Assembly (NCBI GenBank): GCA_964373695.1
Contig: CAYJVT010000016.1
Span: 1-16,994 of the forward strand
Direction of reading: 5' to 3'
DNA length: 16,994 nt
Origin: an uncultured archaeon
Lineage (GTDB): Archaea; Aenigmatarchaeota; Aenigmatarchaeia; GW2011-AR5
Positions 457-16,044 of this stretch are shown one piece after another; position 1 is the first letter of the stretch, and each line of letters begins with the position of its first letter. The position numbers and the translations under genes are program-made. The notes beneath the pieces were generated by a model, which was not told the origin of the DNA, made no database searches, and saw only the letters and a list, made by a program, of their open reading frames with translations.

Positions 457-1065
457 TCAGGTGAAAAGCACCTCAAGCTCCTGGACGGAACTTACAATGT
501 AATCCGGATTTTCCCTTTCGAGCTTCTCCCTTGAATGAAGGCCCCACGTCACAGCCACCGTTTTCACTCCTGCCTCCTTTCCCTCTTTCATGTCACCTAC
601 CGTATCGCCGATGAAGTATATGTCCTTCCCATGGAACCTCTTCCTGATGGAGGACAGCTTTTCCACCTTGCTCGTGCCCTTGTCGCCGCCAAGAATTTCT
701 TTTATATGGCTGATGCCGTTTTCCGCCAGGTTCTTTTGCACCGACGCCGTGACGTTGGACGTCACTATGATTATTTCGTTCTTATCAGAAAGGTATTCGA
801 GCATCTCTTTCGCGCCTGGAAAGAGGTGTATTGTTTCCTTCCAGCAATTCTCCATGAAATCCTTCAGCAATTCGGGTATCATCTCCCTTTTCAATCCAAG
901 CTCGACCGCCGTCTCGTAGAAATTCTTACCGAACAACTTGCCATATTCCTCTACATCTTTTACAGGAGACAGTCCGTACTTATGGCAGAGCCTGTTGAAT
1001 ATTTTCACATGAGTTTCAGCAGAGTCCGATATGACGCCGTCGAAATCGAAGACTAGGATTTTCAT
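457..1065 (-). CDS. HAD-superfamily hydrolase (phosphoglycolate phosphatase-like)
   Basis: Motif I FDFDGVISDS, motif II IVTSN, motif III Lys (KGTSK), motif IV FIGDTVGD. ATGA overlap with the stop of the upstream gene (1062-1065). Confidence 0.92.
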   Translation of the reverse strand: MKILVFDFDGVISDSAETHVKIFNRLCHKYGLSPVKDVEEYGKLFGKNFYETAVELGLKREMIPELLKDFMENCWKETIHLFPGAKEMLEYLSDKNEIIIVTSNVTASVQKNLAENGISHIKEILGGDKGTSKVEKLSSIRKRFHGKDIYFIGDTVGDMKEGKEAGVKTVAVTWGLHSREKLERENPDYIVSSVQELEVLFT

Positions 1066-2789
1066 CGCTTTCTCTTTCTTTTTGAAGCATTAATGCCTTT
1101 TCGCAGAATAACTCTTCGCCCTTTGGACATTTTCCTCATGAAGAGAAGACCGGCTAAAAGCGCTGCAAGGAAGACAGCAATGTAGGCTATATTGTCCATG
1201 AATACTCTTACCACGCTTCCTGTTATGTAGTTCTCATTCTCTGCCTGAAGGCGGCTTTCAGGCACCGGCGGCTCTGCATATTTGCCTTCATCCGCAGCCG
1301 GCGGGGCCGGCTCCGATTCGGGCTGAACGGTATTCTTCGTTTCGTTCTTCACGGTTTCATAGGCCTTTGACTCGTTCTTCTTGATTATGGCAGGACCCCC
1401 GAAAGAGCTCTTCGGAGACGGGGCGAAGTTGCCGCTTCCGCCGCCGCTTCCGCCACCTGATGGCACAGACTGCGGTTCGGGTTGGGGCGCATCGCCGACC
1501 TCGTAAACGGTGAAGTGCTCAACCCTGAAGACGAGGATGCCGTTCCCGTAGCTTATTATCCGGCATATTTCCTCGGGGCACGGCCTGCCGTTCTGCTTTA
1601 TGACGGGGCTAGACGCCTCTATATTGTAGAGAGTAATTATTGCGCTCCTGTTCAGGTGCTGCATGAATTGGGTGTCTATTTCGACGCGGTTCCTTGATAT
1701 GTTTATGTACCTCTCCATCTCCTGCACGGCGGTAAGGTCTATCGGCTCGTCAAAGACGAGCTTTCCCACGGAGGACCTTTCAATGGTTATGTTGGTCGCA
1801 TTGGCAAGGTCCTGGACATTGCTGTAATTTATGCTCATGGTCGTCCGGGGCATCACAACGATGTAATTTTTCCCCGAAAGGTAAGTCTTGTTCATGTATT
1901 CGCACGAGACGCCCCACCAGTAATAGCCCTTTTCCATGTAAGCTTCGCTCTGGACGCTCTGGTTCCTCAGACTGACGGAGCAGGTACCGTTCGATGCGCT
2001 GAATAGGAACGTATGGTTGCCTTCGAGCACCACGCTGTTGTTCCGCGGATAGACGAGGCTTATTTCAACGCTTGCTGTCTGGTTCGCGGCAGGAGGCGGA
2101 CTTGCATATACATTGAACGTGCTCGACGCAGTGTATTCGCCGTCGCTGGCATTTATCGTATGCGTGCCGTTGTACGGATATGAAACAGGCGTCAGCGTCG
2201 CCGCACTGCCCGATATGACTATGGAAATATTGCCGTTGCCGTCTGCAGTGAACGCAAGCGTCTCGTTGTCCGAGAAGTATTCCGAGAGGTTGAGCGAATA
2301 AGAGCCGCTGTATTCCATCACTATGTCAGGCATGTCTGTCAGAAGCATGGGCGGCTCGTTCTCATATTCATCAGTCTCGTTCTCGAACGTCCTGTTGCCC
2401 GAGGACAGCTTCCCGTAATAAATTACATAGGTTATAGACGTCGCGTTCTTCTTCTTGTCGGCCTTGCTATAAATGACGTTGTCAAATTCCACTGTCGCCT
2501 TTTTGCAGAAGCCGTCCTTGTATTTCTCCTTCGTCGTCGTGAAGTTGACGGCGGCCCCGTCCTTCATGGTGACCAGAATACCGTCTTTGCACGAGCCGGG
2601 CCTGAAGCTCTCGAACTTTATATTCTTGCTGAGCTCCTTCTTCACCGAGGTCGAGTTGAGCTCCGTTTCGTAGGCATAGCCGTCCGAAATGAGGAATCCT
2701 GCGAGGTTGGAGGAAAGGTACGAAGCCGCTAGAAGGAAGGCAAGTATGGCCGCGTACTCGAGTATGTGTATCTCTTCCTTCTTCTTCAT
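1062..2789 (-). CDS. Cell-surface glycoprotein with N- and C-terminal TM segments and Ig/cadherin-like domains
   Basis: N-terminal hydrophobic helix and a cadherin/Ig-like segment (LNLSEYFSDNETLAF...TINASDG). Contains a CPEEIC disulfide-type motif, a Pro/Gly/Ser linker, a C-terminal TM (IAYIAVFLAALLAGLLFM) with a basic tail, and many N-X-S/T sequons. Confidence 0.8.
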   Translation of the reverse strand: MKKKEEIHILEYAAILAFLLAASYLSSNLAGFLISDGYAYETELNSTSVKKELSKNIKFESFRPGSCKDGILVTMKDGAAVNFTTTKEKYKDGFCKKATVEFDNVIYSKADKKKNATSITYVIYYGKLSSGNRTFENETDEYENEPPMLLTDMPDIVMEYSGSYSLNLSEYFSDNETLAFTADGNGNISIVISGSAATLTPVSYPYNGTHTINASDGEYTASSTFNVYASPPPAANQTASVEISLVYPRNNSVVLEGNHTFLFSASNGTCSVSLRNQSVQSEAYMEKGYYWWGVSCEYMNKTYLSGKNYIVVMPRTTMSINYSNVQDLANATNITIERSSVGKLVFDEPIDLTAVQEMERYINISRNRVEIDTQFMQHLNRSAIITLYNIEASSPVIKQNGRPCPEEICRIISYGNGILVFRVEHFTVYEVGDAPQPEPQSVPSGGGSGGGSGNFAPSPKSSFGGPAIIKKNESKAYETVKNETKNTVQPESEPAPPAADEGKYAEPPVPESRLQAENENYITGSVVRVFMDNIAYIAVFLAALLAGLLFMRKMSKGRRVILRKGINASKRKRKR

Positions 2790-5689: not shown

Positions 5690-6313
5690 ATGGCATTAAC
5701 AGTGTTGGATGTAAATGTTCTTTCAAACATTATAGTTATTTTCAGCTGCCTCTTCTTGTTCTACAAATGGAGGATAAAAAACCACAGGTTCGCGCTTAAT
5801 TTTGTAATTATTGCATTTGTATTCTTAGGCGTTCTTCTGATAGAATTTCTTGATGCGTCAGAAAACAGCTTTTTCCTGTTAGTGGCTATACTTTCAATAA
5901 TCTTCACGGCATCTCTTGCCTACGCATGCACATGCCTGCTGAAAGAGTGCAGGCACATCCTAGTAGTATTCGCCCTGTATGCTCTTGTTCCGGTATTCTT
6001 GGCTTTTGAAAACACCCCCGTTAATATTTTGTTCTTCATACGCGTCATCGGATATGTAATACTCATACCGTTTTTCATGATGCTTTTCACTGTCAGAAGA
6101 AAGGAAATCAGGATTTTTTCCCTGTTGGGCGTCAGTGCCGTTAGCATGGGCATGCTTTTTCTCGGCACCGTGATAACGAACCCGCATCTGCGCGAGCTTA
6201 TCCCTTGGTACATAATAAGGATTATATTTGCCGCGATGTTTCTGATTCTCGCTCATTTTTCAATACATATGCATGACGGTGTTCTGAATCACAGAAGGGG
6301 AAAAAGGAAATGA
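5690..6313 (+). CDS. Integral membrane protein, about 7 TM helices
   Basis: Seven hydrophobic stretches in 207 aa. ATGA overlap with the next gene (6310-6313). Confidence 0.8.
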   Translation: MALTVLDVNVLSNIIVIFSCLFLFYKWRIKNHRFALNFVIIAFVFLGVLLIEFLDASENSFFLLVAILSIIFTASLAYACTCLLKECRHILVVFALYALVPVFLAFENTPVNILFFIRVIGYVILIPFFMMLFTVRRKEIRIFSLLGVSAVSMGMLFLGTVITNPHLRELIPWYIIRIIFAAMFLILAHFSIHMHDGVLNHRRGKRK

Positions 6314-6759
6314 AAGGCGACGAAGACAGCATATATTTTGTTGCAATTTTATTTACATTTATAATAGGCCTTTCGGCATTGTACGTATTTTATATAGAAC
6401 TGGGAAATTCGAAAACGCCTGAAAGTGAGGCAGACATGATAAAGGATTATATTGGCATTCCGGATGAAATAATCGAAAAGATAAGCACAAGCAGGCAGCT
6501 GCAGGCCTCGCTTGAATTTGGGGGTTTTCTCGAAGGAACCAACGGCATCATCATAAGGAATGCCGGGGATGTCCCCCTCTCGGGCTTTGGCTTTTTTACT
6601 GACGGACAGGAAGTCTCCACCTTCATATCACCCGACGTGCTTTTCCCGGGCTCTTATGGAATAATACTTCTTGATGACACTGCATGGAACAGCATTTCAG
6701 ACAAGAAATTCACCCAGATAAGCACGAGACAGGGCGTAAGGCTGTTTATCAGGAAATGA
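6310..6759 (+). CDS. Single-TM protein, possibly archaeal type IV pilin-like
   Basis: MKG followed by a hydrophobic helix (degenerate class III signal). The C-terminal IIIRNAGDVPLSGF..TDG..LFPG resembles archaeal pilin/flagellin-like beta domains. Confidence 0.45.
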   Translation: MKGDEDSIYFVAILFTFIIGLSALYVFYIELGNSKTPESEADMIKDYIGIPDEIIEKISTSRQLQASLEFGGFLEGTNGIIIRNAGDVPLSGFGFFTDGQEVSTFISPDVLFPGSYGIILLDDTAWNSISDKKFTQISTRQGVRLFIRK

Positions 6760-6772
6760 CTTCTAAATAGCT

Positions 6773-6787
6773 TATATTACCCTGACT
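6773..6787. repeat. 15-bp intergenic direct repeat, copy 2
   Basis: TATATTACCCTGACT, identical to 2796-2810. It overlaps a plausible TATA element of the gene at 6801. Confidence 0.6.
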
Positions 6788-6800
6788 ACAAATAACTATT

Positions 6801-7448
6801 ATGCTGTACTGCAGGAAATGCAAGGCCAAATATTTCAAGGACGACATCAGCGTATGCAAGTTCTGCGGAGGGGATGTCGTTGATGGCGAAGATTTCTATT
6901 CAAAACACCTAAGATTCCGCTTCCCTATCCCAGACAGCGCCTTCATGAAGGCTCTGATATTCGTTACAGCTATTATTGTAGTCATATCCCCGCTGCTCTT
7001 TTATTCGCCAACCGGCGCTGTTGTGCAAAAAACATGCCAAGAAGTTGAGGAGCGATATATTGATGAGGTGCCGTATGAAACTGACACCGTTTACAGCTAT
7101 TATCCGAAATACAATATACTGGGCTCTTCTATGACGGAGCAGTGGAGCAACCAGCTTGGCGTATATTACAATTACAGCGTGACCCTTGAAAACATAGATT
7201 CAGAGGACTACTATTATACAGTCCAATTCATACTGGACACCTCAAACCACGGCAAGCTGAGCAGCCTTGTAAAAAAGCCTTTAAAGAACGGCAGCGCAGA
7301 TATATTCGAGGCGTATTTCGACACTGATTTGAATGAAAAGGTTGACGGCAAGTTCGTGGTCTTTCCCGAGCCGGTGCAGAAGACAGGCAAAGCGATAAAG
7401 ATAGAGAACAGGCCCATGACAAGGAAGGTGACAAAATGCGATACGTGA
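6801..7448 (+). CDS. Zinc-ribbon, single-TM protein with a C-terminal beta-rich domain
   Basis: N-terminal CRKC...CKFC, then a TM (ALIFVTAIIVVISPLLFY) and a beta-rich remainder. Confidence 0.8.
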   Translation: MLYCRKCKAKYFKDDISVCKFCGGDVVDGEDFYSKHLRFRFPIPDSAFMKALIFVTAIIVVISPLLFYSPTGAVVQKTCQEVEERYIDEVPYETDTVYSYYPKYNILGSSMTEQWSNQLGVYYNYSVTLENIDSEDYYYTVQFILDTSNHGKLSSLVKKPLKNGSADIFEAYFDTDLNEKVDGKFVVFPEPVQKTGKAIKIENRPMTRKVTKCDT

Positions 7449-7584: not shown

Positions 7585-9668
7585 TCAGGACTCCGTCTTC
7601 ACAATTATCTTCTCGATTTCCTTCACTTCTTTCCTTGTCTTTGACCTGCTCCTCAGGTACATTATTATGAAAGTGACGACAACCGAGCCTGCTAAAATTA
7701 TTATCGTTTGTATATATGTAGACTGCTGCTCTGAAGGCAATTCGGGTATTTTTTCTATCGTTATGACCTGCTCTATGGAGCTGTAAACAAACGGCGCCGT
7801 CGTATTGACGATTTTCTTGACACTATAGGTCACATTCCTCTGCTCAAAAGGCAGCATGTTCAAAAAAGTGAACTCAACTATCGGGTCGGGCTGTATTATC
7901 CTTGAAGGCTTCTGGGAGAACACTATTTCATCCACGCTGGAAGCGATGGATTTGTCTATTTTCTCCACCACGCTCAGCGAAGTGGCGGGCGTTTCCTTGT
8001 TCCTGACTTTTATCACGAAGCTTGTTTCGCCCTCAAGCTCCTTTATTTCCGCGCTCTTTGTTATCACGAAATCAAGCTGCTCCGACTGTTCCAGTGAGCT
8101 TACCCTGAGCATGAAAATGAAATCTCTCGTGAAATCGGCGTTCTGGAAGCGGATTTTGGTCTGATAATTCCCCGGTATGGCATTGGGCGGGATATTTATA
8201 ACAATGGCAAGATAATTCGACTGCTTTCCTTCAACGGAAAACGACGGATTGGAAACGGAAAACCATTCAGGCGGTATGCCTTCAACCGACACCGCAATAT
8301 CATTTACAGCTTCATCAGCGGGGTTGAATACGCCGATACTTTCCGCCCTCTGCTCACCCGGCGAGACTTCCACCAGGATGGGCATGCTTATGAACTGGAG
8401 GAATTCAGACTGTGTCGTGTCCTCGCCTATCGCAAACACCGACAGTCCTGTTAATTCAGCTTCATATGTTATTGCCGAAGCGCTTTCTGAAACCAGCCTC
8501 GTCCTCATAACAGACCATTGGTCGCCGGAGTATCTTTTCAGCACGACATTGTTCTTCTGCAGGGAATTGTCCTGAACCCATTTCTTTGCAACTTCGAACT
8601 TGACTTTAGCCCCCCTGATATTGTCCTCTTTCAGCCCCTCGTACTTCACTTCAAGGTACTGGTAAACCTTTCCTTCTACTTTTTTTTCTACAGACGCGGG
8701 CTGCTGGTCTGATTTCGTGACCTTTATCTCCACATTGCTTGCGGCATTTTTTACATCAAGGCTGATTTCCTTTATCCCGACATTTTCATTGCTTATTTTT
8801 ACAATATTCGGCTTTTCTGCGGACAATGTTTGCACTATAACGGAAGTTGACACAATGACATTTGCCTTCGTTTGGGTCGTTAAAGATGCGCTTGTGGAAG
8901 TATCGGTAGCGGTTGTGCTGGAAGCCGAAGAAGGCGGGGTCAATATTGTAAGTGTGGACGTCCTGTTTGGAGTTGCGAAAGTGTTGTTGTTCCTGTCGGT
9001 AAAGGTGATGTATGAAACTGTTATATAGTTTCCGGCGGCGGTGCTGCCGACGTTGAATACCAGCGTATTGTACTGAAGCAATGAAAGGGTGGTATTGCCC
9101 TGTATCGTTGTCGCAAATCCTTCCCTTGAAAACACCAGTGTCCCGCCGGAATTGAATATCTTTATCGCCGGAATTATCTGCGACGAGACGTTGCCCACAT
9201 TCCTTGCCGTCAGCTTGAAATACGCCACGGTGCCTTGATACACGCTTTCATCGTTCGAAAAGCCTGATAATTCGACCAGGCCTGCATACACCCTTTTGAA
9301 GACTGATATGCCAGGGAAGCCGTCCCTTGTGATGCTTATAGATATGTTGTAATATCCAAGCCCTCCGAATGTGTAATTCAGCGTGTAATTGTTAGTCCCT
9401 GTCTGGTTTACCGTAAAAGAATTGAAGCTGCCTGTAGGAGGCGTTATAATAAAACTAACCGTCGCATTTACCACAGGATCATCAAACGTATCCACTAGTA
9501 TGACGGATATCGTACGATTGCCGGTGCTGTCAATGTCGTCAGGGCTGAACGTTGCGCGCATCGCCTTATCGCCTGATATGATTTTTACAGGCACGGAAAC
9601 TGATGCCGCAAAAGATATTTCAGCAACAATTGTCACGCATAAAAACAGAAAAAAAAATTAGTTTTCAT
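7585..9668 (-). CDS. PGF-pre-PGF domain cell-surface protein; signal peptide out of frame at an A9 tract as sequenced
   Basis: PGF-pre-PGF-like domain (VYQYLEV...VKFEVAKKW...VVLKRY..DQW...TGLSVFAIG, ~8420-8845), Ig/NEW3-like domains, and a C-terminal TM with basic tail. The track ORF (7585-9636, GTG) lacks a signal peptide. ATG at 9668 plus one extra T in the tract gives MKTNFFFLFLCVTIVAEISFA|AS in frame. Confidence 0.85.
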
Positions 9669-9689
9669 CATAAGTATTCGTTTGTATAA

Positions 9690-9851: not shown

Positions 9852-10790
9852 CTACTTTATATCGGCTATTATCCTCACGTAAGGCCTGCCGCCCACCCCT
9901 GACGCGGCATCATTGTATTTCGTCAGGTATTGCCTTGTCCATTTCAGGCTGTATTCCTTCGGCGGCGCCGAGGGGTTTATCCCGATGACGTACCTGCCCT
10001 TGGGCGTTTCGGGCATGACCTTTATATGTATAAGGACCTTCACTGTCCAGTTGTAGCCGAATATGGGATTCACGGGCTCCAGGAGGAACACTTCAGGGTT
10101 TGTCGTAACTTCAAAGTAATTCTTTATCTGGTCAGGCGACTGCGTCACGTTGAACTGCGTCCCATTAAGGTCCTGGTTAGGTATTACCGAGCTTTCGGGA
10201 AACACCACTTCCATTTTCGTGCCCTGATACGTTTCAACGAGCCACGAAGTATGGAAAAAGCTTGCAACAGTGAAGTCATCGCCGGGCGATGCTTCCACAC
10301 CTATGTCACCCGGGTAAGCGCCATATCCTATCCCATAAAATCTCCCCGCGGTCGGGTTTGCTATGATATCTATCTTCTCCTCAAAAAGCGGGTAAAACTC
10401 CGGCTGCTTCCAGTATTTTTCCTCTAATGTGACAAGGTCGGTTAACCTGCCGGCATAAATAAGCAAATCTATAACATAGAAATCACCGGGAAACGGCGGA
10501 AGATTTTTGTAGACCACAGGCGGCAGGTAGTCGGGCCTCGTCCTTTTTGCATTTGCCGCATCGAATTCCGCCTTTATCTTTTCATCGATGGTCCCGTATT
10601 TTTTCACGGGCTGGGGATTGCCAAGCATGCTATAACCGATAAAAGCAGCGACAAAAACGACGGCTACAAAGGAAGCTGCAATATATTTGGCCCTGCTTTT
10701 TTTGGCAACTATAATCTGGTGACCAGCGGAAACTTCGGTTTTTGAATTTTGTTTATCAGACTGCTTCTTCGATGTTTTTTTATCTTTCAC
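9852..10790 (-). CDS. Membrane-anchored surface protein 'A', paralog of 11825-12502
   Basis: GTG start 6 nt after the SD-like GGGGTTGA. A charged N-tail precedes one TM (IAASFVAVVFVAAFIGY). Shared motifs with A': NLPxFPxDFY, KQPEFYP, GAYPxD, FFHxSWxVxTYQG, NPSAPPKE, RPYVRI. Confidence 0.85.
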   Translation of the reverse strand: MKDKKTSKKQSDKQNSKTEVSAGHQIIVAKKSRAKYIAASFVAVVFVAAFIGYSMLGNPQPVKKYGTIDEKIKAEFDAANAKRTRPDYLPPVVYKNLPPFPGDFYVIDLLIYAGRLTDLVTLEEKYWKQPEFYPLFEEKIDIIANPTAGRFYGIGYGAYPGDIGVEASPGDDFTVASFFHTSWLVETYQGTKMEVVFPESSVIPNQDLNGTQFNVTQSPDQIKNYFEVTTNPEVFLLEPVNPIFGYNWTVKVLIHIKVMPETPKGRYVIGINPSAPPKEYSLKWTRQYLTKYNDAASGVGGRPYVRIIADIK

Positions 10791-10863
10791 TGCCAGTCAA
10801 CCCCATGTTGATAATTATATTCTAAATGTAAATATTTAAGTTAAAAATCCCGTGCTTAATCAC

Positions 10864-11108
10864 AAGTCAAGCTTCGCTTGACTTTGATCCTTCAAAGAGC
10901 GCAGCTCTTTGGGGTGTTGAAATTGCTTTGCAATTTCACACATTCACAGAAGCCTTCGGCTTCTGATGAAAAGGCGGCGGCTTGTCTGCAAAAGAGCTTT
11001 GCTCTTTTGAGATGCCAAAGAGCAAAGCTCTTTGCACATATGTGACCAACTTGTGCAATCCTTGAAGGAATAAAATTCCTCCAGGTTCTCAGAGAACTTC
11101 GTTCTCTG
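10864..11108. repeat. Array of eight perfect triloop hairpins (non-coding)
   Basis: Hairpins: 10864-10884 (loop TTC), 10893-10911 (GCA), 10918-10938 (TTT), 10947-10965 (TTC), 10989-11009 (TTT), 11016-11034 (AAA), 11066-11080 (AAA), 11090-11108 (TTC). Stems are 6-9 bp. A palindrome CACATATGTG lies at 11035-11044. Confidence 0.92.
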
Positions 11109-11157
11109 CAGATATCCTAAATATTAAGTTGGTCAGCTATAACAGCAAGAAAACTGC

Positions 11158-11757
11158 TTACCCTGCTTTGCTTGTATGCACAAGATTAACAGTCGTATCA
11201 GTGCCAATTGCAACGCTGCTGTAATCCGCCCACAGCCAGACGTTCCTGTAGGAGCCGACACCGTTCACGCTCATGTTTGCAACTGTCGCGTTTGTAGCAA
11301 GAGTGACGTTAGCGCATCTTGTAGTGCCGTTTGTGAAATTAAATCCGTTATTAGCCGTGCCAGTGCAGCTGGTTTCCCATGCCCCGTCAGCCCATCCAGC
11401 CTTCACAGTAACGCCCGAAGGCAAAGCTGCCGTGAAGTTTATGGTCATGTTAAGGTATACATTTCCCGTGTTAGTGTAGTTAAATATCGGAGAAGTGGAA
11501 GTTTGCGTATCGCCTCCAAGATTGGATGCATTTATCTTATTGCCAGTTGTCACCGTTGCGTTGAACTGCAATGTCGTCGTCGTCGACCCGCTTGAATAAG
11601 ATGTGGAGTTGTTGCCGGGGACGGACAGCGTGAAGGCGAGAGATGTCGGCAGCAAAAACCTTACAGGCGTTGTTATGGTGTCTGCGAATACGACGCCGAT
11701 GGCGATTAAAAAGAATAGAAGAATAACCAGATACTTATTTTTGACCATCTTATCCAC
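11158..11757 (-). CDS. Secreted, putatively N-glycosylated 'B' protein (candidate fibre/S-layer subunit)
   Basis: Signal peptide ending VFA|DT; ATG at 11748 after GAGTGG is the likelier start. About 12 N-X-S/T sequons, two Cys, and no C-terminal anchor. The mature region aligns with the C-terminal ~160 aa of 12517-15165. Confidence 0.85.
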   Translation of the reverse strand: MDKMVKNKYLVILLFFLIAIGVVFADTITTPVRFLLPTSLAFTLSVPGNNSTSYSSGSTTTTLQFNATVTTGNKINASNLGGDTQTSTSPIFNYTNTGNVYLNMTINFTAALPSGVTVKAGWADGAWETSCTGTANNGFNFTNGTTRCANVTLATNATVANMSVNGVGSYRNVWLWADYSSVAIGTDTTVNLVHTSKAG

Positions 11758-11812
11758 TCAATAATCGCTTATTGCCTACGAAATTCCTGTTTATAATTAT
11801 GCCAGAGGATAG

Positions 11813-11827
11813 TATATATACTTTTTA
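11813..11827 (-). promoter_or_regulatory. BRE/TATA-like promoter upstream of gene B
   Basis: The minus strand reads TAAAAAG-TATATATA, about 65 nt upstream of ATG 11748. Confidence 0.55.
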
Positions 11828-12502
11828 CGCCCCTACATCAACCTGAATGCGCACGTAAGGCCTGTCAAGCCCGCCGAAGAATTCTATGTAAGGCCTGTAT
11901 TTCTGCGACCACTCGGTGCTTTTTTCCTTCGGCGGCGCCGAGGGGTTGAGACCTATGGTATAATTTCCTGAAGGCGCGTTTTTTGACCTTATCCTGACAA
12001 TGACTTTTTGCGCCCACTGGTTATCGAATTTTGGGTAATTCGGCCCCAACACCAAATCATTTTTATCCAGCGAAATATCAAAGTATTCCGGAACAGGATT
12101 TATTATATTCAGCCTCATGCCCTGATAAGTCTGCACAGACCATGAAGAATGGAAAAATACCGTTACGTTCACCTCACCATCGCCCCGAATATTTGTTGTC
12201 CTATCGGCGGGATAAGCACCTATTCCAAGAATGCTTGCCCTGTCCGGAACAGGATTCTTGAACGTATCCACGCCGGAAGTTTCCCATGTGGGATAGAACT
12301 CAGGCTGCTTGTAATAGCTTTCCGTTGCCGAATCCGATATGAAATTTTCCGCCTGAAAATCGACAAAATAGAAATCCAAGGGAAAATCAGGCAGGTTTTC
12401 AAATATAGCTCTGTCAAGAGCGTATTCAGGCCTTGAAGGCGTCTGGCTTACGCAGCCTGATGCAAGGATTACTGAAATCATGATTAAGCAAATAGTTTTC
12501 AT
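11825..12502 (-). CDS. Predicted lipoprotein 'A-prime', paralog of 9852-10790
   Basis: MKTICLIMISVILASG|C is a lipobox-type signal. The remainder aligns along its length with the C-terminal domain of A. Confidence 0.85.
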   Translation of the reverse strand: MKTICLIMISVILASGCVSQTPSRPEYALDRAIFENLPDFPLDFYFVDFQAENFISDSATESYYKQPEFYPTWETSGVDTFKNPVPDRASILGIGAYPADRTTNIRGDGEVNVTVFFHSSWSVQTYQGMRLNIINPVPEYFDISLDKNDLVLGPNYPKFDNQWAQKVIVRIRSKNAPSGNYTIGLNPSAPPKEKSTEWSQKYRPYIEFFGGLDRPYVRIQVDVGA

Positions 12503-12516
12503 AATTAACCCGTTTC

Positions 12517-15165
12517 TTATCCGACGATGCTGTCCTGGTTGAGGTTTACCGTGCTGTCCGTGTTGACAGGAACGCTGCCGTTATAATCAGCCCACAGCCA
12601 GACGTCCCTTGCCTTTCCAAGCCCGGAAGTCGATATATTCGCGACTATTGTCATATTGGTCGTTGCTGTAATATTTGCGCATGAAGTTGTGTCTGTAAGA
12701 TTTATGGCGGTGCAGGATGGCTGCCAAGCAGTGTCAGACCAGCCTGCCTTCACGATGACGCCGGAAGGCAGCGCAGCCGAAAAATTAAGCGTTACATTGA
12801 GGTATATGCTCCCTGTGTTATTGTACCTGAATATGGCAGTGGTCGCTGTCTGGACAGCCGTGCCGCCGGCAACATTCGTGGCGTTGACCTTTTTGGCATT
12901 CAAATCGGTCGTATTGAAAATGATTGCCGTGGTCGTCTGCGTCGTGTTGAATATTGTGCCATTAGGCGCAGGTATCGAAAGGGTATATGAAAGGTCTTGG
13001 GCCGAGGCTATGCTGACATTGAATCTTTCTGTAGCGTTGCTGAGCATAAGAGACCAGTTTGAAGTGAAATTTACGTCAAACACCCACAGCGTCCCGATGT
13101 CGCCAGTCGCATTCACTGTCCAGTTGAGCGAGCAGTTTTGCCTATGGGAAAGAGAGCCGCACGTCAGGTTTGAGGGCGTCCAGAAAGGCGTGGCGCCGGA
13201 GAAGGTTTGGATGATGACGTCGGGCAATCCGCCTGAGGTTGAGTTCCTCCTAATACTGCCGTTGACCTGTTCACATACCACAGTGGGGTTGAGATTATCA
13301 ATAGGAGTGCACTGCACAGAAGCGTTGATAGTAAAGTTACTGAGCTGACTTACATTGTATGTAGTGCCTCCAGCAGGCCCCACAAGCGATACATTAAGGT
13401 AGCCGAATGCCTGGCTCACGCTCAGGTTGTTGCTTGAAGCATTATTGTTAAGCGCGAGATTTCCTATAGGAAGCGAGTTGGTGGCATTGCACTGGATGCG
13501 CAAAGAGTAGTTTATATGAGGCTTTGTGGCATTGACCTGGAAAACAAAATTGCTTGAGTTCAAATTGGTGAGATTTTTTATATAATACGACGAGACGTTG
13601 GCATATACCGCCTCCGCGTTTGACGTTGTTATGGTCGTGAACGAGACGTTGTCTGTGGAGTTCTGCAGGAATATTGTGAGCGCTGATGACGTGCCGTTGA
13701 TGGACTCGCATGCGCCTGTTACGGTAGCGGATTCGTTTCCTGTAAAAACAGTATTTTTGCTCGCTATGGTGATATTAGCCTTCAGGATGGGCTTCTGAAG
13801 AGTCCTTTTGTACGCAAAGGATGCAGACTCGTTGCCGGTTAAGGCAGTCTGGGTGGCTGTTCCTATGGCAAGCGTGTTGTGCCACACTGTGTTATTGAAC
13901 GGCCTCAGGCACACGTTGTTTGCGGCTCCCTGCGATATGGTTGTTGCCATCGCCCTTGAGCTGTTGAAGGGGTCCTGCTGCATACTCACCCAGTTCACGT
14001 TCGCGCCGCAGCCTGTTACAGATGCACGTACAGTATATGTTCCTGTGTCGCATGTTGTATTGTTGTTGCAGTCTACAGGGCCGAAATCGGTGTCGCCTGC
14101 CGTGCCTGTACCATACAGGATAACGCCGGCGCTGTTCATCGCATTTCCCGTGCCGTTATAGAAGCCGGAGGCTATGTCCCTTGTTACCAATGTTTCTATC
14201 GCGGCGTCTGGCTCTGCGCCAGCCCCCCACCTAGTGCCGTTCCAGTGCCACACGTCAAGGTCCAAGCCGCCGTCAACACTGGAATATAATATCCTGTTTG
14301 AATCCACATCAGAGGCCAGGGAAATCCACTGTATGCTTGCGGCGAGCGTCAGAGCGCCTGCAGGCAGGGTTATGTTACTTTCCCATCCTGTGCCGTTCCA
14401 TATCCTCGTGTTACCTCTTGTTGGCACGTCTTCTGCCCATGCAACCATCATACGCCTTGTCTTTCTTTCAGGCGCTATGTCAAATATCTGCTTCGGGGTT
14501 GTGACCTCAGCTGATATAGTGAGGTTTATCGTATTACCCCATGTTGTCCCGTCCCATATCTGGGCGCATATATCGGCTGTCGTGACATTGTAACCCACAA
14601 ATGTGATATTATTTGAACCGGGCTGCGATTCAACGCGGACCCAGCTCGGCCCGCCGACGCAGGTGTCCTGGGCCATCTCCGTTTGGCTGCCCCACACCGC
14701 GCCGTTCCATATCATGTAAGTGCCGTTCGTATTCTCCCCCGGAGCGCCGGTCCCGTTCTTGAACACAGCCAAAGCACGGCCTGTAATGTTCTCGTATGCG
14801 ATGTCAAAAGCCCTTCCTCTTGCATTAAATTTGCCAACCCTTGACACGTTTATCATGTTGCCCCATGTGTTATCGTAGCCGTTATAAACTGCAAAAAATA
14901 TGTCGCTGCTGTTGTCCATCGCCCCAAGGATAGCCTCGTCTCTTACTGGATTTGTCACGACCTTGAGCCACTGGACCTCGCCAGCCATCGTAAGCCCCGT
15001 AGACTTCTGCTCGCTGAAATCCGTCCCGTTCCAAATCCTGTATTGTGGAACGTGCATAGAGGCGGTTTTGTTCACGTATACGACAATGCCCTCGGTCGCA
15101 TGAACTGCGCCGGCAACAAGCAAGAAAAACCCCATTAACGCAAAAATCTTACACGCTACTCTCAT
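12517..15165 (-). CDS. Large secreted glycoprotein 'B-prime': predicted beta-propeller, Ig-like domains and a C-terminal B domain (candidate adhesin)
   Basis: Signal peptide ending AVHA|TE. Recurrent W(N/D)GxxW repeats in the N-terminal ~450 aa. The C-terminal domain is homologous to B (NTGxxYLNxTxNFxAALPSGVxVKAGW...VWLWADY). No membrane anchor. Confidence 0.85.
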   Translation of the reverse strand: MRVACKIFALMGFFLLVAGAVHATEGIVVYVNKTASMHVPQYRIWNGTDFSEQKSTGLTMAGEVQWLKVVTNPVRDEAILGAMDNSSDIFFAVYNGYDNTWGNMINVSRVGKFNARGRAFDIAYENITGRALAVFKNGTGAPGENTNGTYMIWNGAVWGSQTEMAQDTCVGGPSWVRVESQPGSNNITFVGYNVTTADICAQIWDGTTWGNTINLTISAEVTTPKQIFDIAPERKTRRMMVAWAEDVPTRGNTRIWNGTGWESNITLPAGALTLAASIQWISLASDVDSNRILYSSVDGGLDLDVWHWNGTRWGAGAEPDAAIETLVTRDIASGFYNGTGNAMNSAGVILYGTGTAGDTDFGPVDCNNNTTCDTGTYTVRASVTGCGANVNWVSMQQDPFNSSRAMATTISQGAANNVCLRPFNNTVWHNTLAIGTATQTALTGNESASFAYKRTLQKPILKANITIASKNTVFTGNESATVTGACESINGTSSALTIFLQNSTDNVSFTTITTSNAEAVYANVSSYYIKNLTNLNSSNFVFQVNATKPHINYSLRIQCNATNSLPIGNLALNNNASSNNLSVSQAFGYLNVSLVGPAGGTTYNVSQLSNFTINASVQCTPIDNLNPTVVCEQVNGSIRRNSTSGGLPDVIIQTFSGATPFWTPSNLTCGSLSHRQNCSLNWTVNATGDIGTLWVFDVNFTSNWSLMLSNATERFNVSIASAQDLSYTLSIPAPNGTIFNTTQTTTAIIFNTTDLNAKKVNATNVAGGTAVQTATTAIFRYNNTGSIYLNVTLNFSAALPSGVIVKAGWSDTAWQPSCTAINLTDTTSCANITATTNMTIVANISTSGLGKARDVWLWADYNGSVPVNTDSTVNLNQDSIVG

Positions 15166-15250
15166 CCAATCACAATCTCTTTGTGATTATTATGCACAAG
15201 AACAAATTAAGGTTTTCCCGCCGCATTTGAAGCATGAAACATCTTTTTCA

Positions 15251-15258
15251 TCTGCAGA
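15251..15258. repeat. TCTGCAGA palindrome, one of five intergenic copies
   Basis: Other copies at 43-50, 7537-7544, 9760-9767 and 11105-11112. Confidence 0.7.
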
Positions 15259-15270
15259 AAATATCAACAT

Positions 15271-16044
15271 TCATCGTTTCCCAACATGGAGAAGCCCTGC
15301 GATTTTGCCGATAAACCCCTCATCGTCTTCAAACAAAAGGCTCCCCTCAGCCATAAAATCGGAAAGATGCCTGAAGCATGCGTTAATCCTGCGGGATTTG
15401 GCGATGGCAGGCGTCTTTTCCACGAGACTTTCCATGACCTTCTCGTTGAATGGTATGGAGGCTATGACAGGCAGTCCGACCATTCTTTCCACTTCCCTCT
15501 TTTTTATCTCGTACTTTTTGTTTCTTACCATGTTGAGCACAACACCAAGCGGCTTGATGTGAAGCTCCTCGCAGAGCTTCCTGCACTTTATCAAATCAGC
15601 AGTGCTGTGCACTATAGGGTTCGTGACAAGCAATGCCTCATGCGCCGCTTCAAGCGTTATAAGGGATTCACGATTGAAGCCAGGCGACGAGTCGAGTATG
15701 ATAAACTCGTATTTATCCAATATTCCGGAAAGCTTTTCCTTTACGATATGCCAGTCAACATCTTGCAAGTCCTCGAGCTTGAGCGATGCCGGTATTATAC
15801 TTATGCCTGATGGATGCTCGTATATGGCTTTTTCTATCGGTATATGACCTTTTAATGCGTCATTGAGCGTTGCCGGCGTTGAGTAGATGCCAAGATAAAG
15901 ACCTACATGAGACGTCGTGATGTTGCAGTCAACGACAAGCGTCTTCTTGCCATGGTACTTGTGCAATGCAGCGGCTAGATTTATTGAGACTATCGTCTTC
16001 CCTACGCCGCCCTTGCCTGAAATTACGCCTACAACACGCGACAT
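15271..16044 (-). CDS. minD: MinD-family P-loop ATPase (archaeal MinD-like)
   Basis: Deviant Walker A SGKGGVGKT, LVVDCN, IILDSSPG and GVVLN motifs. C-terminal amphipathic helix FIGKIAGLLH. Confidence 0.88.
   Translation of the reverse strand: MSRVVGVISGKGGVGKTIVSINLAAALHKYHGKKTLVVDCNITTSHVGLYLGIYSTPATLNDALKGHIPIEKAIYEHPSGISIIPASLKLEDLQDVDWHIVKEKLSGILDKYEFIILDSSPGFNRESLITLEAAHEALLVTNPIVHSTADLIKCRKLCEELHIKPLGVVLNMVRNKKYEIKKREVERMVGLPVIASIPFNEKVMESLVEKTPAIAKSRRINACFRHLSDFMAEGSLLFEDDEGFIGKIAGLLHVGKR

Follow-up and report, generated by a model that had tools for sequence, protein, structure and literature searches.

The 16,994-nucleotide (nt) stretch of archaeal DNA analyzed here, referred to as the window (contig C16 of a 1.02 Mb genome in 60 contigs that is 91% complete and of a size seen in DPANN archaea), carries a cassette of adjoining genes that we name B', A', B, A and F2. 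The best-supported reading of this locus, to which we give a probability of roughly 0.6, is that it encodes a Sec-dependent, N-glycosylated donor-strand surface fiber of the chaperone type, made up of tip, shaft, helpers and base. This reading draws on the conserved neighborhood of the A and B families, on the architecture of B-family proteins, on the predicted folds of B and A' and, above all, on covariation between the N-termini of B and F2.

An earlier sequence-only reading of this region had named five co-directional genes, running from a MinD homolog through B', A' and B to A, and open reading frames (ORFs) on the minus strand confirm all five. It had further arranged the last four as a duplicated two-gene module, B'-A' followed by B-A. 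The duplication itself is borne out by alignment: B aligns with the last 160 amino acids (aa) of B' (53% identity over 164 aa, E 4e-44), and A' aligns with A (36% over 230 aa, E 2e-41). The unit, however, extends to a sixth gene, F2, which lay beyond the range of that reading and was omitted. The genes and the spacer between B and A are listed below; Ig stands for immunoglobulin and TM for transmembrane.

15271 to 16044, minus strand: MinD/ParA-family P-loop ATPase (MinD), 257 aa, with a deviant Walker A motif (GKGGVGKT) and an amphipathic-looking C-terminal tail
12517 to 15165, minus strand: B', 882 aa, in which the signal peptide (aa 1-23) is followed by the head (aa 24-470), a middle part rich in sequons and the B module (aa 721-882); putative tip adhesin and secreted glycoprotein
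11825 to 12502, minus strand: A', 225 aa, with a lipobox-like LASGC motif, a helical subdomain and a PapD/MSP-like Ig sandwich; putative lipoprotein and candidate dedicated chaperone for B'
11158 to 11757, minus strand: B, 199 aa, a Sec-secreted, unanchored, sequon-rich beta-sandwich protein; putative major fiber subunit
10791 to 11157: spacer between B and A, 367 nt
9852 to 10790, minus strand: A, 312 aa, a type-II membrane protein with a Lys-rich cytoplasmic tail, an N-terminal TM helix and the A domain; candidate to chaperone B or to assist in its assembly
7585 to 9636, minus strand: F2, 683 aa, putative base anchor; its N-terminal strand is B-like (ASVSVPVKII), its domains are PGF-pre-PGF and NEW3 (Ig-like), and it ends in a TM helix followed by a basic tail

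None of A, A', B and B' matches a Pfam or NCBIfam family at E <= 0.1. Both B and B' begin with Sec-type signal peptides and have no membrane anchor, and the earlier description of B as small, secreted, unanchored and sequon-rich proved correct. B carries 60 sequons per 1000 aa and B' 41-103, against 6.8 in long ORFs genome-wide, and the sequon enrichment is 9-15-fold. A gene for the oligosaccharyltransferase STT3/AglB was found in the same genome. The high sequon density and the AglB gene together agree with how heavily the archaeal donor-strand filaments described so far are glycosylated.

The association of A with B was followed in two sets of genomes. In the first, 343 genomes of the phylum were scanned for both families; B was found in 15, A in 15 and both in 13, and the genomes with just one of the two are incomplete, have short contigs or gave weak matches. 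Wherever both occur they adjoin, in the order long B', short B, A. The second set comprised 185,579 species genomes scanned with the A motif alone as seed, which returned 40 loci. Here 50 of 55 A genes directly adjoin a B-domain gene, and the two loci that have no neighboring B-domain gene are cut by a contig end. The B-A order is kept in 38 gene pairs. Co-occurrence and synteny of A and B had been set beforehand as a check on the sequence-only reading, and both hold: the two are partner families whose synteny extends over genomes of the Micrarchaeota and Iainarchaeota types, with homologs that bear the names Candidatus Micrarchaeota, Iainarchaeum/Diapherotrites and Gugararchaeum. Two modules recur, one of a long B' and a short A', the other of a short B, a longer A and F2, and they lie side by side (the arrangement in the window), divergently or on separate contigs of one genome. 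This recurrence fits an arrangement of one helper per subunit type.

Three of the cassette contigs (L024, L041 and L056) sit in metagenome-assembled genomes labeled Chloroflexi or Thaumarchaeota. Most likely, these are DPANN contigs that were misbinned.

An exhaustive profile search (E <= 1e-3) defines a B family of 212 representative clusters, and architectures were counted from the best 150 of these. About three quarters of the 150 representatives are ~120-240 aa long. A further 31 measure 400-2338 aa, and in 26 of these long homologs the B module ends within 20 residues of the C-terminus, below heads that vary between clades. By analogy, this combination of short proteins and of long ones that end in the invariant module is the pilin/tip-adhesin pattern of chaperone-usher and WxL pili. 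The long and the short proteins of the window differ at the start of the module, as the following two features show.

12517 to 13005, minus strand: C-terminal B module of B', 53% identical to B and without the conserved N-terminal strand of B
11644 to 11682, minus strand: mature N-terminus of B (DTITTPVRFLLPT), putative donor strand

This mature N-terminus is the best-conserved stretch of B among close homologs, and hidden Markov model matches to B' modules begin at profile position ~30-37. The sequence-only reading had cast B' as a propeller-headed tip adhesin. The variable head on a C-terminal B module agrees with the adhesin part of that proposal; the propeller fold is not established, its basis being a WNGxxW motif repeated in the head (aa 24-470) with a period of ~52 aa, together with Atlas results that consist of weak BNR/propeller leads alone (0.88-0.91). 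Long B' homologs show stray Ig or propeller repeats at most in Pfam.

A monomer model of B was made with AlphaFold 2 (AF2) from 67 sequences (predicted local distance difference test score, pLDDT, 87.7; predicted template modeling score, pTM, 0.81). It places a strand at aa 26-35 after the signal peptide, followed by a low-confidence linker and an eight-stranded sandwich on which the N-terminal strand packs. Compared with 48,161 PDB representatives by VIA, the model matches the Csu pilin CsuA/B best (Z 6.7), and further matches at Z 4.7-5.5 comprise BPSL1626, CS17, the PapG pilin domain, AbpA (7ueg, Z 4.9), TasA (8aur, Z 4.9), cannulae (9h8b, Z 4.8) and CooA. The best Foldseek match is EcpA (E 6.5e-3), and re-ranking of the Foldseek top 1000 by Z gives EcpA (6.5), BPSL1626 (5.6) and self-complemented FimA (5.3). 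VIA treats matches from Z ~8 as safe, and every match of B falls below this level. The B profile found nothing below E 3 among all PDB sequences, and no sequence similarity to the solved archaeal donor-strand subunits among them. Donor-strand pilins nevertheless take the top three places in two independent rankings, and we read the resemblance of the modeled B to them as a consistent lead, not as proof.

A and A' had been put forward as membrane-tethered anchors or assembly factors, a proposal that is supported both by their tethers, a TM helix in A and a lipobox-like motif in A', and by the PapD-like fold, that of pilus chaperones, in the A' model. The A' gene begins 14 nt past B', and its lipobox Cys is kept in most close homologs. 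A itself has invariant polar and aromatic motifs (YYKQPEFYP and GxGAYPAD); its profile search returned 96 clusters, 0 of them with a Pfam domain, and nothing significant was found when the profile was compared with PDB sequences. The best match of A there, to subunit E of CFA/I (E 0.45), was taken as chance.

The structural evidence comes from an AF2 model of A' built from 65 sequences (pLDDT 92.7), in which a small helical subdomain is joined to a single Ig sandwich (aa 90-225). Foldseek gave 84 matches at E <= 1e-3, led by MSP, HYDIN PapD-like domains, FaeE, Caf1M and CfaA, with E values of 1e-5 to 4e-4 against MSP and chaperone-usher chaperones. By VIA, the matches at Z 8.7-7.3 are ASH/PapD-like domains, Enterococcus WxLIP (solved structure 9i1y, Z 7.5), EcpB, YadV, SafB and CupB2. 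The predicted fold of A' is that of the PapD-like superfamily, the fold of pilus chaperones, and the correspondence holds at the level of the fold only. A may accordingly be viewed as a candidate chaperone for B. A quick tree, in which deep support is weak, suggests that A and A' are old sister clades in Iainarchaeota, and that the A' of the window's family stems from a separate, younger duplication.

The gene after A supplies a candidate for the base of the fiber. An F2 homolog comes next after A at each of the 12 loci compared in the first set, and the second set yielded 18 B-A-F2 modules. The products of genes in this position start with a signal peptide, have a large ectodomain rich in Ig domains and end in a TM helix with a basic tail; they are homologous across lineages. 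The domain matches of the window's F2 are TIGR04213 (2e-27) and NPCBM_assoc. Mature N-termini of B and F2 from the same loci are set side by side here.

Window: B, DTITTPVRFLL; F2, ASVSVPVKIIS
L027: B, ADFAETAVFFF; F2, ADFTETATFFN
L034: B, ANQQTTTMTWVV; F2, ANGQNTTTTWVV
L015: B, ATVLTVVHFNV; F2, EDIRTLILFNV
L020/L021: B, AVEWTET[L/I]LYF; F2, NLEWIQGNIYY (L021)

Covariation between these N-termini was tested on 10 B clades (< 40% identity), each represented once. The summed similarity of B and F2 from the same locus was 282, compared with 187 +/- 18 for permuted pairs, a value reached in 0 of 200,000 permutations, and for 7 of the 10 clades the best N-terminal match of B was its own F2. The control comparison of B with B' N-termini gave no covariation signal (117 versus 124 +/- 9). 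Because the covariation runs across clades and has no counterpart in this control, the N-termini of B and F2 are under a common, lineage-specific constraint. In two lineages the B profile also marginally matches the start of F2 (E 0.002). Such covariation is expected if both N-termini insert in the same B-module groove, or if both bind the same helper, and it is the strongest new evidence for a chain of strand donation with F2 as its membrane anchor. We regard F2 as the best candidate for the base subunit, which would anchor the fiber.

Assembly of such a fiber might proceed as follows. B', with its adhesive head and C-terminal B module, and B would be exported and their signal peptides cleaved. 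The tethered PapD-like proteins would hold newly exported B modules at the membrane, A' acting for B' and A for B. The N-terminal strand of each B would then complete the sandwich of the preceding subunit, so that a polymer B'-(B)n forms whose distal tip is B'; we infer this insertion, the resulting polymerization and the length n of the polymer. F2, which combines the same N-terminal strand with a C-terminal TM helix, would insert last, ending the fiber and anchoring it in the membrane, and MinD, where present, would probably position or regulate the base at the membrane. The episymbiont would likely use the structure to attach itself to its host's cells or to surfaces. The fiber role proposed by the sequence-only reading is supported in part, and that reading appears largely right but incomplete.

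Several points weigh against the fiber. B matches known structures weakly (Z < 8, Foldseek E >= 6.5e-3). As an Ig-type fold, the PapD-like sandwich is common, occurring also in MSP, ASH, Calx-beta and protease C-terminal domains, and A combines a single Ig domain with a helical subdomain, without the two-domain L-shape of chaperone-usher chaperones. The cassette is patchy, being found in 15 of the 343 genomes of the phylum. In the window itself a frameshift separates F2 from its signal peptide, which may make export of the proposed anchor from this genome doubtful. The feature concerned is the following.

9633 to 9671, minus strand: short leader ORF (MMKTNFFFCFYA, then a stop), ending in a T9 run (plus-strand A9, 9649-9657)

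A single additional T in this run would restore a signal peptide in frame, with cleavage between MMKTNFFFLFLCVTIVAEISFA and ASVSVP, like that carried by the orthologs of F2. The A9 form is present in contigs of four runs from two studies, and the frameshift is therefore not a one-off assembly error. The tract could be a site of phase variation, with a minority A10 form, or a fixed frameshift.

Polymerization, moreover, is reached by indirect argument, and this counts in favor of the strongest competing explanation, non-polymeric display. There the B module would be a dock that is bound by A-type proteins and tethers B', and B and F2 would form a short, finite complex. The strict one-to-one pairing of B-domain and A-type genes would suit such a dock, as would the Ig-like fold of A, which is a general protein-binding module. 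A payload-free B, however, has no obvious role in display and yet is the most conserved member; B possesses both strand and module, which makes self-polymerization possible in principle; and the N-terminus of F2 mimics that of B, suggesting a chain over a dock. We give display a modest chance, clearly below that of the fiber.

The covariation of B and F2 reveals a common constraint and not its nature, which leaves room for an alternative in which their N-terminal motif is a sorting or processing signal, read by an enzyme-like A or by a modifying enzyme, on glycoproteins associated with the envelope or S-layer. The motifs YYKQPEFYP and GxGAYPAD of A could form an active or binding site for this purpose. 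Neither Foldseek nor VIA detected an enzyme fold in A, though, the motif is modeled as a beta-strand packed on the B sandwich, and the best matches of B are pilins, not S-layer proteins. A signal of this kind seems decidedly improbable to us.

The genes that accompany the fiber cassette bear on a further alternative. MinD matches the NCBIfam model minD_arch (TIGR01969) with 187.1 bits, under the cut-off of 201.75, and also Pfam ParA, CbiA and AAA_31; the window's genome has two MinD paralogs in all. Among the loci of the first set, 10 of 13 have a MinD gene less than 6 kb from the cassette. The MinD start/stop overlaps the neighboring gene in family f9 and in L013, and MinD comes after F2 in three further loci. 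The sequence-only reading had made MinD part of the system, and its proximity to the cassette does recur in several lineages; it is not universal, as most Iainarchaeum loci are without MinD.

Families f9 and f37 have an F2 anchor that continues, past its TM helix, into a cytoplasmic HerA/FtsK/CedD-like P-loop ATPase (Pfam DUF87, 6e-13; best NCBIfam model CedD, 5e-11, far under its cut-off). The fusion is followed by a ~525-aa coiled-coil protein, which has coiled-coil-type matches alone in the Atlas and NCBIfam, by a small protein with a signal peptide, a NEW3 domain and a TM helix, and by MinD, with overlapping stop and start codons, in one operon. This arrangement spans L016:12964-18495, and equivalents occur in L017, L019, L020, L021 and L015. 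Queries from these relatives found neither the HerA-type ATPase nor the coiled-coil protein in the window's genome (91% complete), and neither was found in most Iainarchaeum loci. With the ATPase not found in either and MinD patchy, MinD and the ATPase are therefore accessory, and the core set is B', B, A (with or without A') and F2. Where it occurs, the F2-ATPase fusion would tie the base of a donor-strand fiber to a translocase-type motor.

It is this operon that favors a transfer or uptake apparatus, in which the cassette would be the outer part of an ATP-driven machine for DNA or other macromolecules and the fiber a conduit or tether. The accessory status of the ATPase and the coiled-coil protein speaks against it, and we consider it very unlikely. 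A virus or mobile-element remnant, with B as a jelly-roll capsid-type protein, would accord with the patchy distribution and with weak Foldseek rows for picornavirus-type capsid proteins, but is rejected, given that those rows have E >= 0.05 and TM scores of 0.2-0.3, that Foldseek against the predicted viral structures of BFVD gave no match at E <= 0.001, that Sec signal peptides, sequons and membrane anchors point to proteins of the cell surface, and that no integrase or other viral gene lies nearby.

The sequence-only reading had found no canonical system to which the locus could be assigned. Its observation that the window has neither a pilin ATPase (PilB/FlaI) nor a prepilin peptidase holds; the conclusion is outdated, as pili from Bacillota and from bacteria of the candidate phyla radiation (CPR) were described in 2026. 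The first of these, the Elr/WxL pilus, was reported as confined to Bacillota; its DUF916/DUF3324 chaperone is membrane-anchored and has Foldseek matches to CsuC, CfaA, Caf1M and EcpB, its tip adhesins end in an invariant module, and it includes a base subunit (bioRxiv 10.64898/2026.10.17.759780). Its small pilin has an N-terminal donor strand and an incomplete sandwich, which B would parallel if its own N-terminal strand acts as a donor. The likeness to the present cassette extends to putative tip adhesins made of a variable payload on an invariant C-terminal pilin module, to a membrane-anchored candidate chaperone of PapD fold encoded beside the pilin, and to a separate candidate base subunit in a system that has no usher. 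CfaA, Caf1M and EcpB, which A' also matches, are among the four chaperones reported for ElrE. The two differ in that A is anchored N-terminally, by a TM helix or lipobox, and the Elr/WxL chaperone C-terminally; in that the base is held here by its own TM helix and there by sortase and the cell wall; and in the archaeal host and N-glycosylated subunits of the present system. A, A', B and B' gave no match to Pfam WxL, DUF916 or DUF3324 at E <= 0.1.

The second, the Pam pilus, was reported as exclusive to CPR bacteria and consists of strand-exchange pilins served by the membrane-anchored PapD-like chaperones PamC and PamD, with an anchor, PamR, that has an N-terminal strand and a C-terminal TM helix (PMC13278184). 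Like the present system, it belongs to an ultrasmall episymbiont and has no trans-envelope machine, and its Sec-exported, Ig-like pilins are joined by strand exchange, as is proposed here for B; PamC and PamD are comparable to A and A', and the terminator/anchor PamR to F2. In contrast to the proteins described here, Pam pilins have two domains, and so do the Pam chaperones, which carry a C-terminal anchor; this distinction is drawn from the published description, not from sequence. Part for part, the cassette follows the same logic as Pam and Elr/WxL, while its families appear unrelated by sequence to those of Elr/WxL.

Chaperone-usher systems (Fim, Pap, Csu, Ecp and CFA/I) offer the same parallels at a greater distance: the relation of B to B' is like that of FimA to FimH, with a C-terminal pilin module and a helper of the PapD superfamily, and the best structural matches of B are CsuA/B, EcpA, BPSL1626 and FimA. 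Here, however, there is no outer membrane and no usher, and the helper is a single-Ig, membrane-tethered protein. Usher, PapD_N, PapD_C and Fimbrial gave no sequence match in the window proteins. Type IV pili and archaella differ more plainly, for the signal peptide of B is of Sec type, cleaved between VFA and DTIT, and has no [KR]G-type site ahead of the hydrophobic stretch.

Among archaeal filaments, Sulfolobus threads, Pyrobaculum bundling pili, cannulae and haloarchaeal tafi consist of Sec- or Tat-exported, heavily glycosylated beta-sandwiches linked by an N-terminal strand, as is proposed for B, and B has a weak structural resemblance to AbpA (Z 4.9) and cannulae (Z 4.8). The assembly route of Sulfolobus threads was left open by its authors as either spontaneous or dependent on unknown machinery (PMC9715654). 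Pyrodictium cannulae are explicitly described as chaperone-free. Unlike these filaments, the present system has a PapD-like partner gene beside nearly every subunit gene. In full-text searches of the literature on DPANN together with donor strand, and on PapD together with archaea, no description of such a cassette was found.

Two further elements lie in the spacers around B.

11813 to 11826, minus strand: putative TATA-like A/T-rich box (AAAAAGTATATATA), read from sequence; it directly follows the stop codon of A' and precedes the start codon of B by ~60 nt
10863 to 11108: array of eight perfect triloop hairpins between B and A, a copy of a dispersed genome repeat

The hairpin array, with stems of 8-9 bp and 3-nt loops, had been taken by the sequence-only reading as a structured 3' region of B, in keeping with an abundant major subunit. 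The structure is real (spacer folding z = -7.9 relative to shuffled sequence). Copies of the hairpin series were found by blastn on contigs C28 (96.6% over 148 nt), C10, C7, C34 and C22, many of them at contig ends; in four public metagenome runs the array has 2-8 times the depth of its flanks, and Logan contigs break there. In the orthologous B-A spacers of two related genomes the array is absent and the sequence unstructured (z -0.8 and -0.4). These unstructured spacers and the dispersed copies rule out a conserved 3' element of B, and the array therefore lends no support to transcript abundance. The hairpin elements close their stems on C-G, have GAA, AAA or GCA loops and coincide with assembly breaks at many contig ends; candidates for their nature are elements like miniature inverted-repeat transposable elements (MITEs) or repetitive extragenic palindromic (REP) sequences. 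An Rfam scan of the window found no RNA family, and the runs listed for the stretch include none of RNA.

The remaining neighbors of the cassette include a 575-aa surface protein (window positions 1062-2789, minus strand) that begins with a signal peptide, ends in a TM helix and carries 24 sequons. It contains a Nup98/96-type autopeptidase S59 domain (PF04096, 1.7e-8), and a homolog adjoins the cassette in genome G026. In that genome, a beta-lactamase-family gene (PF13354, 1e-45; L011:8816-9757, minus strand) whose product has an N-terminal TM helix lies between A' and B. Three small genes stand beside the window's cassette at 5690-7448 on the plus strand, encoding proteins of 207 aa (with 7 TM helices), 149 aa and 215 aa (zinc-ribbon/TM), none of which has a Pfam match. 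In each of the family's two related genomes, homologs of the first two are found next to the cassette, and a homolog of the third is found there in one of them (G032).

The cassette would add two or three new protein families for annotation. Being widespread in Micrarchaeota and Iainarchaeota, it would extend usher-less assembly with membrane-anchored chaperones to Archaea, where the donor-strand filaments compared here have no identified assembly chaperone. A bolder proposal holds that chaperone-guided donor-strand pili have here a third instance, independent or very anciently shared, in Archaea, that DPANN archaea use them to grip their hosts, and that some of their bases are fused to a motor; taken as a whole we think this unlikely, if less so than a sorting signal. 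If true, it would be the first donor-strand fiber linked to a motor in the cytoplasm, which might serve regulated assembly, retraction, or exchange of DNA or cargo with the host, among other uses. For DPANN episymbionts in general, the cassette would give candidates for the organelle of host attachment, including highly variable adhesin heads.

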